In this document: positions 8,317-15,084 of the stretch, one piece after another
Numbering within the stretch: position 1 is the stretch's first letter
Layout: each line of letters starts with the position of its first letter
Virus genome (UHGV): UHGV-0264118
Length of the DNA stretch: 16,029 nt
Direction: 5' to 3' (one strand)
Source: a virus
Program-made: the position numbers and the translations under genes
The notes under the pieces: model-generated
The model's input: only the letters and a program-made list of their open reading frames with translations
Databases searched by the model: none
Told to the model about the DNA's origin: nothing

Positions 8317-8383
8317 TGAAACAGGTGAGTTGAGTTCAAACTGTAGTACAATTCTCTCCAGTTTGAACAGGAAAGAATATTCT

Positions 8384-8716
8384 ATGAACCCTTATATTTA
8401 TCTTGGTGGTGCAATACTTGCAGAGGTCATTGGTACAACCTTAATGAAGTTTTCAGAAGGTTTTACACGGTTATGGCCATCTGTTGGTACAATTATTTGT
8501 TATTGTGCATCATTCTGGTTATTAGCTCAGACGCTGGCTTATATTCCTACAGGGATTGCTTATGCTATCTGGTCAGGAGTCGGTATTGTCCTGATTAGCT
8601 TACTGTCATGGGGACTTTTCGGCCAACGGCTGGACCTGCCAGCCATTATAGGCATGATGTTGATTTGTGCCGGTGTGTTGGTTATTAATTTATTGTCACG
8701 AAGCACACCACATTAA
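8384..8716 (+). CDS. emrE: SMR-family multidrug efflux transporter EmrE
   Basis: 110-aa translation from the ATG at 8384 (MNPYIYLGGAILAEVIGTTLMKFSEGFTRLWPSVGTIICYCASFWLLAQTLAYIPTGIAYAIWSGVGIVLISLLSWG...) matches E. coli EmrE with its four transmembrane helices. The predicted ORF starts earlier at 8330. Confidence 0.95.
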   Translation: MNPYIYLGGAILAEVIGTTLMKFSEGFTRLWPSVGTIICYCASFWLLAQTLAYIPTGIAYAIWSGVGIVLISLLSWGLFGQRLDLPAIIGMMLICAGVLVINLLSRSTPH

Positions 8717-8747
8717 AAATAATTTGTTTCTAAACGACTAAAATATG

Positions 8748-8780
8748 GAGGCTCTTATATTTATATGAGCCTCGTTTTAT
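8748..8780 (+). terminator. Rho-independent terminator downstream of emrE
   Basis: Perfect 7-bp stem GAGGCTC (8748-8754) / GAGCCTC (8767-8773) with a 12-nt loop, followed by GTTTTATGCTTTTT. Confidence 0.6.
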
Positions 8781-8972
8781 GCTTTTTGTTAATGTCTTTA
8801 TTTTTTTATGTATTCTTTTGTGCTTTCAAGATTATGGCGTAAGAAAATTGCAATACGATTATTGTTGTATATTCAAGATAATGTGACCTTAATTGTCTTT
8901 TTAAATAAAAATTAAACAAAAATTATATCCCACCACTAAGGTTTATAAAAGCATACGTTAGCAGGTGTCACC

Positions 8973-10499
8973 ATGAAAAAAGCCATAGCATATATGCGAT
9001 TTTCATCACCAGGTCAGATGTCTGGCGACTCATTAAACCGACAGAGAAGACTTATTGCTGAATGGTTAAAGGTAAATAGTGATTATTATCTTGATACCAT
9101 AACATATGAAGATTTAGGATTAAGTGCATTCAAAGGAAAGCATGCACAATCAGGAGCTTTTTCGGAATTTTTAGATGCTATAGAGCATGGTTATATATTG
9201 CCAGGAACTACATTGTTAGTTGAAAGTCTGGACAGACTTTCAAGAGAAAAAGTCGGTGAAGCGATTGAACGTCTGAAATTGATTTTGAATCACGGTATTG
9301 ATGTTATAACTCTTTGCGACAATACAGTCTATAATATTGACTCTTTGAATGAGCCATATTCATTAATAAAAGCCATACTTATAGCACAAAGGGCAAATGA
9401 AGAAAGCGAGATAAAGTCAAGTCGGGTTAAATTATCATGGAAGAAAAAACGGCAGGATGCACTGGAATCAGGTACGATTATGACGGCGTCTTGTCCGAGA
9501 TGGCTCTCCTTAGATGACAAAAGAACGGCTTTTGTTCCAGACCCCGACAGGGTGAAAACTATTGAGCTAATTTTTAAACTCAGGATGGAAAGGCGCTCAT
9601 TGAATGCAATAGCCAAGTATTTAAATGATCATGCTGTAAAGAATTTCTCAGGAAAAGAAAGTGCATGGGGACCTTCTGTAATTGAAAAATTATTAGCGAA
9701 TAAAGCTCTGATAGGTATATGCGTACCTTCATATCGTGCAAGAGGTAAAGGAATAAGTGAAATCGCTGGCTATTATCCCAGAGTCATATCAGATGATTTG
9801 TTTTACGCTGTACAGGAAATTCGGTTGGCACCTTTTGGTATTAGCAATAGTAGCAAAAATCCTATGTTGATAAATCTACTTCGAACAGTTATGAAGTGCG
9901 AGGCTTGTGGTAATACCATGATTGTTCATGCGGTATCTGGAAGTTTGCATGGCTATTATGTTTGTCCGATGAGAAGACTGCATCGATGTGACAGGCCATC
10001 AATAAAGAGAGATTTGGTTGATTATAATATCATTAATGAGTTGCTTTTTAATTGTAGTAAAATCCAACCAGTTGAAAACAAGAAAGATGCTAATGAAACT
10101 TTAGAGTTGAAAATTATTGAGCTCCAGATGAAAATTAATAATTTAATTGCTGCATTATCTGTTGCGCCTGAAGTTACCGCTATAGCAGAAAAAATCAGAG
10201 TATTAGATAAGGAATTACGAAGGGCTTCTGTATCATTAAAAACTTTGAAGAGTAAAGCGGTGAGTTCACTTGGTGATTTTCATGCTATTGACTTAACCAG
10301 TAAAAATGGGCGAGAGCTATGTCGTACACTTGCCTATAAAACATTCGAAAAAATCATAATCAATACAGATAATAAAACCTGTGATATCTATTTTATGAAT
10401 GGCATTGTTTTTAAACACTATCCTTTAATGAAAACAATATCCGCCCAGCAGGCGATAAGTACTCTCAAATATATGGTTGATGGTGAGGTTTATTTTTGA
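8973..10499 (+). CDS. ybcK: Large serine recombinase (YbcK-like)
   Basis: 508 aa. N-terminal resolvase-type catalytic motif AIAYMRFSSPGQ (Y-x-R-x-S nucleophile). C-terminal Cys cluster (CEACGN...CPMRRLHRCD) and a coiled-coil segment typical of large serine recombinases. AGGTG Shine-Dalgarno upstream. Markedly AT-rich gene. Confidence 0.85.
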   Translation: MKKAIAYMRFSSPGQMSGDSLNRQRRLIAEWLKVNSDYYLDTITYEDLGLSAFKGKHAQSGAFSEFLDAIEHGYILPGTTLLVESLDRLSREKVGEAIERLKLILNHGIDVITLCDNTVYNIDSLNEPYSLIKAILIAQRANEESEIKSSRVKLSWKKKRQDALESGTIMTASCPRWLSLDDKRTAFVPDPDRVKTIELIFKLRMERRSLNAIAKYLNDHAVKNFSGKESAWGPSVIEKLLANKALIGICVPSYRARGKGISEIAGYYPRVISDDLFYAVQEIRLAPFGISNSSKNPMLINLLRTVMKCEACGNTMIVHAVSGSLHGYYVCPMRRLHRCDRPSIKRDLVDYNIINELLFNCSKIQPVENKKDANETLELKIIELQMKINNLIAALSVAPEVTAIAEKIRVLDKELRRASVSLKTLKSKAVSSLGDFHAIDLTSKNGRELCRTLAYKTFEKIIINTDNKTCDIYFMNGIVFKHYPLMKTISAQQAISTLKYMVDGEVYF

Positions 10500-10610
10500 G
10501 TAATAATCACTTTTTCAACCGTGCTATAGTAAGAAAGTTAGGTAAGTACAATAAAATTATCTATCCTGAACGAAGCGTCCTGAGCTATGGTTTTACTATA
10601 GAGACTGCCA

Positions 10611-10934
10611 ATGGATGCTGGCGTTCTCGTTCTAGCAGTTCAACAATACCCAATCACAAAACAATTCACTGATAACGAACTTTGCACACTCGCCTGGTTA
10701 TGGCGAGCAGGGAATGTGATGTTAATTACCTACCAGAACGTTACTCCTCTTCTTCAGGTTGCGGAGCATCGTGAAGCTGGTCGCTTCACTTCTATCGAGC
10801 AAGAATATCCCCAGATACTCAATAAGGCACAGGCAATCCTTGCCAGAGAAACGGCACATGTAAAATTCCGGCCGTGGCAGGATGATAAGTGGAGTCGAGT
10901 TTTGCCGCATTTACGTTCGGATCGATTACAGTAG
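10611..10934 (+). CDS. Hypothetical protein (107 aa), coding status uncertain
   Basis: ORF with a weak ribosome-binding site. No recognisable family. Flanked upstream by a 9-bp inverted repeat. Confidence 0.3.
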   Translation: MDAGVLVLAVQQYPITKQFTDNELCTLAWLWRAGNVMLITYQNVTPLLQVAEHREAGRFTSIEQEYPQILNKAQAILARETAHVKFRPWQDDKWSRVLPHLRSDRLQ

Positions 10935-11395
10935 ATTCCAATTAACAATGAGAAACACATAGCCACCCCGTGGTATTGAAACCATATAATGTTGGATTTG
11001 AAAACAGATCTTTTTCCATGTATTAATAACTACATCCCCGCGAGTGATTCAAAAAGGAGGGCCCAATTTTGTCCGAGTTTTTGTATTCCCCCGCATGCCG
11101 CTGCGGAGCACTACATCTGAGTGTCTGACTAGGGGATAAAATTAGACTGGATAGTGAGAAGAAAGTGGCGTGCTAGGCTGTGCCGAGTGCTACCAGTACA
11201 CCCTGGGGGTGTGCAGCTTTCGCCGAGACTGTAGTGGGTATCGGTTAATGCACGAAAAACCGAGAGGTCAGACAACCAATTTGCCGTAGGATTGTTTCCG
11301 GTGCGATACCGGTGTACTAACTGAAAGCAATGCGAAAAAGCATAAACTCGGTCCTTCAGTCGCCCTACACACTATTTACTAAGAAGGGCTAAAGC

Positions 11396-11752
11396 ATGGA
11401 TACAATTATCACATGGATGGGAGATCGTCTGTTGGGGTGGATAACAAACAAATCCGATCTGCGGCAGAGGGCAATCACTGGATTAACTCCTGCGATTTAT
11501 TCAACAATTTTATATACTGAAAAATTAAAACGTGGTGAGCCTAATAACCCAAACGAAGAAGAAAAACTTTATAGGCTTTGGTATGAAGCGTCTTCCCAAG
11601 TCGTAGACTTTGATCGAGAGCTGGCTAAAAGATGTTTAGATAAATCAGAATATTGGCTTCATTCTGAATTATATAGCCCTGAGAAAGTTGGAGAGCTAAA
11701 CATTTCTTTGGTTGGTATGAAGGCAACGCTTGAAGGAATAAAGCACAATTAA
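11396..11752 (+). CDS. Hypothetical protein (118 aa)
   Basis: AT-rich ORF (MDTIITWMGDRLLGWITNKSDLRQRAITGL...) with an AAGGG Shine-Dalgarno about 9 nt upstream. No recognised family. Preceded by a ~430 bp non-coding GC-richer region. Confidence 0.45.
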   Translation: MDTIITWMGDRLLGWITNKSDLRQRAITGLTPAIYSTILYTEKLKRGEPNNPNEEEKLYRLWYEASSQVVDFDRELAKRCLDKSEYWLHSELYSPEKVGELNISLVGMKATLEGIKHN

Positions 11753-11841
11753 AACCTTTGATTTGCGATAATCAACTCGCCATAATCATGTCATCGGAGC
11801 CTGAACAACTCCGGTGACTTCTGCGCTAAACGGGGACGTTT

Positions 11842-11943
11842 ATGCGCACACACAATCCAAACTCTCTTCTCCCTCCACAGATGCAGAAATGCACCTGCGA
11901 TATATTGTATCCAGCGTTTGACCTCTGCGGAGGTGAAGCGTGA
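11842..11943 (+). CDS. ylcH: Small protein YlcH-like (33 aa)
   Basis: Translation [33 protein letters not shown]. Its stop overlaps the GTG start of ybcN (GTGA). Below the 60-aa cutoff of the ORF track, found by manual translation. Confidence 0.5.
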
Positions 11944-14001: not shown

Positions 14002-15084
14002 TTAGAACTGGTAAACCATACCTACAGCAACGATATCATCGGTAGCAACGCCAGATGCTTTCGTGAAATCGCTCTTATCAATCAGGTTGATTTTGTAGTC
14101 AACAAAAGTGGACATATTTTTGTTGAAGTAATAGGTTGCACCTACATCAACATATTCAACCAGGTCCTGATCACCCCAAACACCCAAGTCTTTTCCTTTA
14201 GAATGCAGGTAAGCAACGGATGGACGCAGGCCGAAGTCGAACTGATATTGTGCAACAGCTTCGAAGTTTTGTGCTTTGTTGGCAATATGGTTATTACCAA
14301 AAACAGTCATGTTCTGGGTTTCAGAATAGGTGGTGGCCAGATAGATGTTGTTCGCATCATATTTCAGACCAGCTGCCCATACTTCAGCATTTTGACCAGA
14401 AGCATTCAGACCGTTGTTACCGTAGATAACCTGATTATTAGTGCGATCAGATTTAGCATAGGTTGCACCCACGCCGAATCCTTCATACTCATAAGTAGTT
14501 GAGAAACCGAAACCATCGCCATTAGCTTCAGTTACTTCATTTCGGTCATTTTTGCCCTGATACTGAGCTGCAAAGTTCAGGCCATCAACCAGACCAAAGA
14601 AGTCGTTGTTACGATAAGTTGCAACACCTGTGGTGCGACCAGTCATGAATACATCTGTTTGGGTCCAGGTATCGCCACCGAATTCTGGCAGAACGTCAGT
14701 CCACGCACCGATGTCGTATGCTACACCGTAGTTACGGCCGTAATCGATTGAGCCGTAGTCACCGAATTTCAGGCCTGCAAATGCAAGACGGGTTTTGTCT
14801 TTGGAGGAACCTTGAGATTCAGCGCGGTTGCCTTTGAATTCATATTCCCACTGACCGAAACCAGTCAGTTGATCGTTGATTTGGGTTTCACCTTTGAAGC
14901 CAAGACGGGCATAAGTAGTATCACCATCATCTGCATCATTAGAGGAGAAGTAGTGCTTAGCATTAACTTTCCCGTACAGATCCAGCTTGTTACTGTCTTT
15001 ATTATAAATTTCAGCTGCCTGAGCAGACATCGCCATCAGTACTGATGCAGCTACAGCAGAAATTGCCACTGTTAATTTTTTCAT
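14002..15084 (-). CDS. nmpC: Outer-membrane general porin (OmpC/OmpF family), NmpC-like
   Basis: 360 aa. Signal peptide [23 protein letters not shown]|AEIYNKD. Beta-barrel porin hallmarks and C-terminal ...VAVGMVYQF. Convergent with Q, between Q and the lysis genes. Confidence 0.9.

Follow-up and report, generated by a model that had tools for sequence, protein, structure and literature searches.

Comparative evidence for a large structured RNA upstream of small accessory genes in the nin region of lambdoid prophages

In type III toxin-antitoxin systems, an intrinsic terminator sets the ratio of RNA to protein, and the antitoxins are tandem repeats processed by an RNase of the ToxN fold. The phage-associated RNAs GOLLD and ROOL reportedly build multimers through loop-loop contacts. 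In a Clostridioides difficile prophage, the RNA RCd22 represses and neutralises the protein AbiF in cis as well as in trans (bioRxiv 10.1101/2025.04.15.648962). Here we describe an element that shares traits with each of these, found in the virus genome UHGV-0264118 (16,029 nucleotides; this whole stretch of DNA is called the window below). The window is a DLP12-type lambdoid prophage of Escherichia coli. Within the nin region of its early-right operon, a gap without annotated genes precedes an open reading frame (ORF) for a protein of 118 amino acids (aa). Positions 11034-11364 of the + strand, about 331 nucleotides (nt) inside this gap, are very probably a real, structured RNA, with about 16 helices common to 36 distinct variants. 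The + strand is the one that pR transcribes.

The evidence for structure is comparative and not thermodynamic, because folding of the single sequence, the check proposed in an initial annotation made from the window alone, came out no better than shuffles on either strand (z = -0.83; other strand z = -0.30). The RNA core rests on two alignments (A3 and A6), in which long invariant blocks alternate with short variable ones and insertions or deletions are almost absent. The fold was derived with RNAalifold and a helix-by-helix search for stacked compatible columns, and was counted on the 36 distinct sequences, the controls being the same helices with their 3' partners slid by 1-3 columns. Standard pairs make up 97.9% of the cells in the proposed fold and 34-45% in the slid controls, 18 of 84 pairs have changed on both sides compared with 1-6 in the controls, and the covariation score is 0.234 against 0.04-0.06, with none of 500 shuffles attaining the observed values; as the fold was derived from the same 36 sequences that were used for counting, these figures put the number of independent events too high. 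Even so, helices H11 and H7 and a kissing loop show a diversity of compensated versions that is hard to explain otherwise. At several pairs G-U occurs without variation; on the opposite strand these would be C-A, and the RNA is therefore assigned to the + strand. The suggestion of the initial annotation, that a structured non-coding RNA precedes the 118-aa ORF, is borne out by conservation across hosts, compensatory base changes and the absence of codon periodicity.

The helices fall into three domains, with the central and 3' ones closed by a long-range helix (Table 1). H7 and H9 (three compensated pairs each) and H11 (five compensated pairs, in at least six different compensated sequence versions) are the best supported. 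H4 is compensated in the variant types L008, L011, L198 and L209 (G-U to U-A; the L-numbers label individual variant loci) and H5 contains one compensated pair, while the terminal pair of H12 occurs in AU, GC, GU and CG versions and is unpaired in 10 of the 36 variants. H1, H2, H13 and H16 are invariant; they are plausible helices, and H1 and H2, because they never vary, are uninformative for covariation. The loops of H5 and H11 are complementary over six base pairs, two of which are compensated (one as U-A, A-U and C-G, the other as A-U and G-C); slid controls of this kissing loop are paired in 9-52% of cells. Three hairpins had been pointed out in the initial annotation, and all three exist in the window. 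Two of them belong to the conserved fold: ACACC/GGTGT is the register of helix H10 (11199-203/11207-211), which is 95% paired with one-sided changes only, and CCGG/CCGG (11298-11312) forms the tip of a variable hairpin that shows compensatory changes (UA, AU and CG at one pair). The third, CCGCA/TGCGG (11091-11106), is not conserved, its second pair being broken in 25 of the 36 variants and covariation being absent.

Two further pairings were considered and set aside. A long-range CCGAGUUU:AAACUCGG helix that emerged from single-sequence folding is invariant except for one variation that breaks it, and H12 was preferred for its compensated pairs. The GGAGGGCC segment pairs with the 3' end (11350-57) in 92% of cells; this is no better than shuffles, and the pairing was dropped from the main fold. 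In addition, two invariant CCGAG segments (11073-77 and 11260-64) are both able to pair with a single CUCGG (11347-51), and the 5' one (11073-11080) extends to a perfect 8-bp helix with 11344-11351 that would disrupt H3, H4 and H12. This competition may reflect an alternative conformer; the alternative pairing has no covariation support, and its sole variation breaks it.

Signs of coding were also considered. The initial annotation had found no ORF of 60 aa or more in the gap, and neither strand in fact contains one of at least 50 aa between 10966 and 11396. The RNA core contains 2-5 stops in every frame, and its longest open stretch, of 77 codons, has no listed start. The gap is also GC-richer than its surroundings, as described there (0.47-0.49 over 10951-11400 versus about 0.33-0.42 over 9000-10800 and 0.38-0.40 over 11401-11850), at a level not above that of other genes of the window (up to 0.58). 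Variable columns of the RNA core are spread over the three codon phases as 48/45/48, and those of the 118-aa ORF in the same loci as 40/30/94 (p = 4e-10). The even distribution, devoid of codon periodicity, therefore argues that the core is not coding, and the excess at third positions indicates that the 118-aa protein is under purifying selection. The two short hypothetical coding sequences that the GenBank record of phage Turner places inside the RNA (L003 4055-4186 and 4236-4355; window about 10989-11120 and 11170-11289) are probably over-calls, since the RNA carries no coding signal.

A narrower coding hypothesis concerns a short ORF (sORF) of 19 codons that starts with UUG behind an invariant, Shine-Dalgarno-like GGAGG, the latter sitting in the small hairpin H4; the RNA would then be an mRNA or a dual-function RNA. 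GGAGG and UUG are found in every variant, and L008-type variants, in which the flanks change, still preserve 7 nt of complementarity with the 16S 3' end at a spacing of 6-8 nt. The peptide itself appears to be without visible selection, because the changes are mostly non-synonymous (about 5 synonymous versus 8 non-synonymous in a manual count of printed variants) and a natural lineage (L007, L016 and L017) has UGA at codon 13. Codon periodicity is absent, and H5 and the kissing loop account for the majority of the changes. We consider this hypothesis very improbable. Still harder to credit is a decayed protein gene, one of the roles listed in the initial annotation, or a site acting at the DNA level, such as a recombination site for the serine recombinase YbcK or a module boundary. 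Gene decay does occur nearby, where an upstream ORF of 107 aa retains only an antirepressor C-terminal domain, and the recombinase gene lies 470 bp upstream. The strand-specific G-U pairs, the compensatory changes and the lack of periodicity refute a decayed gene; no repeats are present, and YbcK does not adjoin the element in Klebsiella, in E. coli 3426 or in other loci.

Of 5426 complete E. coli genomes, 159 carry the RNA segment at 96-100% identity, and a further copy is 83% identical; RefSeq, annotated with the Prokaryotic Genome Annotation Pipeline (PGAP), has nothing at this stretch in E. coli genomes. Four deposited phages carry it, namely the coliphages Turner and IdasGreatGrand (the gap is 100% and 99.8% identical to the window, respectively) and two Klebsiella phages (78% identity). 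A scan with one invariant 18-mer located about 64 IMG/VR and about 26 metagenome contigs, and loci fetched through the 118-aa protein add Enterobacter bugandensis and Obesumbacterium proteus to the hosts. Searching IMG/VR for distant relatives with two other invariant blocks returned the same set, all extra matches being due to chance, and a one-genome-per-species scan produced chance matches only. A covariance model (R1) scored 363-423 bits in relatives and gave either full-strength matches or none when run on 160 nin regions whose NinB is of the E. coli or the Klebsiella type. The RNA family looks narrow and sharply bounded. The element is sporadic and strain-specific, an accessory of the nin region in some lambdoid phages and prophages of Enterobacterales. 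In one locus (L063) the RNA copy is cut in helix H16 (window about 11337) by an inserted element, the first ORF of which looks like one for an IS21-type transposase.

The RNA likely has its own sigma70-type promoter, with the start at A11034 (the A of AUCCCC), the first base of helix H1. The sequences upstream of the variants have diverged into at least three families; TTG is kept at -36..-34 in nearly all, and ATTAAT, TTTAAT or TTAAAT is found at -12..-7 relative to A11034 in all. A promoter belonging to the RNA is suggested because these hexamer positions stay put while the surrounding sequence diverges. The window also has TG at -15/-14, and in L059 the upstream flank has been replaced. In L038, L011 and L024, an inverted repeat CCATA-N3-5-TATGG abuts the 5' side of the -35 element (window about 10982-10997, where the window has CCATATAATGTTGG); it may serve as an operator or mark where the upstream transcript ends.

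The conserved RNA ends with CAGUCGCC (11357-64). Most relatives have a CCGCC-N4-GGCGG-U7-8 terminator within 8-14 nt after the RNA, among them variants with three different downstream genes, and the terminator in L051 was called by the scan. The transcript in most relatives would thus end at an intrinsic terminator just after CAGUCGCC. This terminator is missing in the clade of the window and in the L024/L038 group, where the 118-aa ORF follows directly, and the consensus scan found no terminator-like site at 11365-11395 in the window. Because no terminator separates RNA and ORF, the RNA in the window would make up the first 330 nt of the 118-aa protein's mRNA.

The two parts also move together. 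Sixty loci with near-identical NinB lack the RNA. For 55 of these, homology to the window picks up again at about 11740-11769, just past the stop of the ORF; on the left, the break falls at 10916 in the printed examples (L120, L134-L136). Promoter, RNA and ORF are therefore exchanged together, as a single cassette within a hot spot. Elsewhere the slot between the antirepressor remnant and ylcH/ninB, with near-identical flanks, is filled by a 314-aa ORF or by a 169-aa ORF with a hydrophobic N-terminus (fillers at L134 2626-3784 and L120 3045-3814), neither of which has a Pfam match. All 11 fetched nin-region loci with a homologue of the 118-aa protein (69-79% identity) have the RNA directly upstream. 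The distance from the start of CAGUCGCC to the AUG is fixed at 39-42 nt in all variants linked to the 118-aa gene, and 31 nt separate the RNA end from the start codon in the window. One homologue of 51% identity, located next to an integrase, has no RNA upstream. The 118-aa protein is predicted to be a generic four-helix bundle and has no Pfam or PADLOC match, PHROG function or significant fold match.

The cassette boundaries and the fixed spacing lend partial support to two roles put forward in the initial annotation, an RNA component of an RNA-protein accessory system and a long 5' leader. The account we place first, tentatively, is that the RNA may be the constant RNA half of an RNA-protein moron that follows the logic of type III toxin-antitoxin systems and AbiF-RCd22. 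Its layout would be promoter, structured RNA, optional attenuating terminator and small effector protein. The RNA would keep the downstream protein in check, in cis first through a limit on read-through or translation and possibly in trans as well, with its large conserved fold responding to a signal such as infection. Because the proteins encoded downstream are unrelated, gating in cis, at read-through or translation, is more likely than gating by direct binding.

Several observations weigh against the RNA-protein moron. The same RNA is followed by unrelated ORFs of 118, 183, 178, 95 and 177 aa and by DUF1367, and direct neutralisation of all these proteins by one RNA is hard to picture. No downstream protein matches a known toxin or defence family in Pfam, PADLOC or the PDB. 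The Klebsiella phage Kp4856-1 has the RNA and no homologue of the 118-aa protein, and a common E. coli lineage keeps the RNA intact with the ORF truncated to 66 aa. At 330 nt and about 16 helices, the RNA is far above the size of known antitoxin or leader RNAs, and no alternative pairing of it with the terminator or with the downstream ribosome-binding site is supported by covariation. A GUCGCC...GGC pairing of that ribosome-binding site with the 3' end of the RNA is possible and, being invariant, uninformative. The putative promoter lacks the canonical A at -11 and is not called by the consensus scan, which misses the -10 element because of this absence. Finally, the variants represent about 6-8 recombining lineages, so that there are fewer independent compensatory events than the cell counts suggest.

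The downstream genes vary in kind. DUF1367, an ordinary nin gene, follows the RNA in one case (L011), and the 178-aa product is a membrane protein by the look of its hydrophobic ends. In the other loci the downstream ORF begins no more than about 60 nt from the RNA or its terminator, so that a separate promoter would have little space. The 183-aa ORF of the Klebsiella phages (L002 5416-5967) contains RLRHNLLH, resembling the HEPN Rx4-6H motif. An assignment of this protein to HEPN was not retained, as it has the motif resemblance only and no match in Pfam, PADLOC or the PDB.

Nearly as likely as the RNA-protein moron is a free-standing, trans-acting RNA moron that consists of promoter, RNA and terminator, and might act as a protein-binding scaffold or decoy, as a ribozyme or as an RNA that assembles with itself; the downstream genes would then be mere occupants of a neighbouring hot spot. 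A strong intrinsic terminator stands directly after the RNA in most variants that lack the 118-aa gene, and both flanks are variable. Conservation of the RNA does not depend on what comes next, be it an ordinary nin gene or a truncated ORF, and Kp4856-1 has the RNA without the 118-aa protein. Its size, many invariant junction nucleotides and kissing loop recall GOLLD and ROOL, and the kissing loop could be intermolecular, as in those RNAs. This is offset by the situation in the window's clade, where the RNA is physically the 5' untranslated region (UTR) of the 118-aa gene at fixed spacing, by the exchange of RNA and ORF as one unit, and by the presence of the RNA upstream of every fetched nin-region homologue of the 118-aa gene.

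A pure cis-acting sensor is improbable by comparison. Such a leader, riboswitch-like or an attenuator, would recognise a metabolite, ion, tRNA or protein by binding and would thereby set the read-through or translation of the next gene, whichever it is. The 5' UTR position in the window and the terminator immediately 3' of the RNA in relatives agree with a leader, conserved unpaired nucleotides are typical of binding pockets, and the two invariant CCGAG segments competing for CUCGG could act as a switch. The RNA nevertheless precedes at least six unrelated types of ORF with no common function, shows no compensatory change for the alternative pairing and no covarying pairing with terminator or ribosome-binding site, matches no known riboswitch family and is about twice the size of a typical aptamer with its platform. 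The riboswitch named among the roles in the initial annotation is thus left without specific support. An unlikely, though less remote, possibility is that the RNA represents a new class of large structured phage RNA and alone serves as the constant sensor or gate of modular defence or exclusion cassettes with interchangeable small effector proteins. One 330-nt fold would be combined with a four-helix protein, an RHNLLH (HEPN-like) protein, a membrane protein or others, in the manner of a retron with constant RNA and variable effector and without the reverse transcriptase; the L5-L11 kissing loop could be intra- or intermolecular.

Table 1. Coordinates of the RNA, its helices and the associated cassette features in the window
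Feature	Position	Strand	Remarks
Exchangeable cassette (promoter, RNA, 118-aa ORF)	10917-11753 (837 bp)	+	Delimited by loci with near-identical NinB
-35-like hexamer TTGAAA	10998-11003	+	Putative
Extended -10-like TGtATTAAT	11019-11027 (TG 11019-20; hexamer 11022-27)	+	Putative
5' domain	11034-11137	+	H1 11034-39/11132-37; H2 11040-42/11092-94; H3 11050-55/11078-83; H4 11059-62/11071-74; H5 11099-102/11120-23 plus 11104-07/11116-19
Shine-Dalgarno-like GGAGG (invariant)	11056-60	+	Read from sequence and variants
UUG-started 19-codon sORF	11069-11128	+	Read from sequence and variants
Kissing loop, 6 bp	CACUAC 11109-14 (H5 loop) with GUAGUG 11231-36 (H11 loop)	+	Paired in 100% of cells
H6, long-range helix	11145-50/11356-61	+	Closes central and 3' domains; 100% paired; wobble-compatible one-sided changes
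Central domain	11161-11245	+	H7 11161-66/11216-21; 11167-68/11193-94; H9 11171-73/87-89 plus 11176-78/82-84; H10 11199-203/207-211; H11 11222-26/41-45 plus 11228-30/37-39
3' domain	11259-11352	+	H12 11259-64/11347-52; H13 11266-68/75-77 (invariant GGUCAGACAACC); variable hairpin about 11289-11318 (compensated); H16 11330-33/40-43
Spacer	11365-11395	+	Weak ribosome-binding site; no terminator in the window's clade
118-aa ORF	11396-11752	+	Predicted four-helix protein; homologues at 51-99% identity; AlphaFold2 predicted local distance difference test (pLDDT) 80

The genetic setting was annotated from a RefSeq locus that is 100% identical to a 551-bp query around the gap (10900-11450). This locus begins with intD, exo, bet, gam, genes for a cI-like repressor and a cro-like product, O, P and a ren-like gene, and continues with emrE, the serine recombinase gene ybcK (window 8973-10499), the gene for the 107-aa protein (10611-10934) and the unannotated gap. 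The gap is followed by the 118-aa hypothetical gene, a ylcH-like ORF, ybcN/ninB, ninE, ybcO, rusA and Q. In the window, Pfam matches support the calls of recombinase, antirepressor fragment, RusA, Q and EmrE, and likewise that of an intact porin on the minus strand. The 107-aa ORF, which a 58-aa ORF overlaps (window 10496-10934), encodes the C-terminal domain only of a P22-type antirepressor (PF10548). It looks like a truncated remnant, because other loci carry full antirepressor-like genes of 202-249 aa at its position. The genes upstream of the RNA differ among loci and include the recombinase with the antirepressor remnant, full antirepressors, a lipoprotein gene, a MazG-like gene and others.

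The SMR efflux gene emrE and the large serine recombinase gene ybcK occupy window 8330-10499, between the replication genes and the RNA, and phage Turner has the same pair. Downstream of Q, an intact gene for a 360-aa general porin lies at window 14002-15084 on the minus strand (Porin_1, E = 4e-152), as nmpC does in DLP12. The RefSeq locus identical around the RNA has lipocalin and ybgA-like genes at the porin's place.

Large, intricately folded RNAs of this kind are rare, and the phages that host this one are lambda-like phages of E. coli, the most studied and a tractable group. Should the RNA gate or neutralise the small proteins encoded after it, a prophage hot spot would contain a new module of RNA-based control; should it act alone, it would be a new class of orphan RNA, with a job that simple genetics could find. 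In either case the RNA merits annotation, since PGAP leaves the stretch empty and one phage record holds two spurious short coding sequences there.

By every test applied to its sequence, the RNA is a new family that lacks the defining features of each known family considered. The covariance-model scan proposed in the initial annotation (cmscan with Rfam 15) matched no family at gathering thresholds over the whole window; with E values up to 10, the region 10800-11900 gave a single chance snoRNA match inside the ORF. ARAGORN detected no tRNA or tmRNA in the window, and TRF together with a direct-repeat search found nothing in 10900-11450. The full-text literature, searched also with sequence strings of the invariant blocks, yielded no description of the RNA, a search that does not fully exclude an earlier one. 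With regard to retrons, no reverse transcriptase is annotated within 11 kb on either side in the RefSeq locus identical around the gap. The annotation of that locus likewise contains no IscB or TnpB and no IS110 recombinase, as would accompany an omega RNA or a bridge RNA, and the serine recombinase YbcK is absent from most other RNA-carrying loci.

Compared with individual families, the RNA resembles cobalamin and lysine riboswitches and T-box leaders in its 5' UTR position, complex fold, loop-loop contact and, in relatives, a terminator directly downstream. It differs from them in having no family match, unrelated downstream genes and no covarying expression platform. The put RNAs of phage HK022, which act in cis in antitermination, are also lambdoid RNA elements located just after a promoter and before a terminator; those are formed by two stem-loops of about 70 nt and lie at pL and pR, whereas the present RNA has 330 nt and is an accessory of the nin region. 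With GOLLD and ROOL it shares the character of a large, multi-domain orphan RNA in a phage context with a conserved loop-loop contact, while it matches neither model, is smaller (330 nt compared with about 600-800 nt) and occurs in Enterobacterales, not in Lactobacillales and others.

The closest parallels in gene arrangement come from systems that pair an RNA with a protein. Unlike the type III toxin-antitoxin systems ToxIN, CptIN and TenpIN, the element has no repeats and no ToxN/AbiQ-like protein by Pfam and PADLOC, and the window has no terminator; like them, most of its relatives are arranged in the order promoter, RNA, intrinsic terminator and protein gene. The RNA has no Rfam match to the abiF motif, is several times larger than abiF motif RNA and RCd22 and is not built from repeated motifs, and it precedes unrelated proteins that are not Abi_2. 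What it has in common with the abiF motif RNA and RCd22-AbiF is a structured prophage RNA placed directly upstream of a small accessory protein gene, in one transcription unit.

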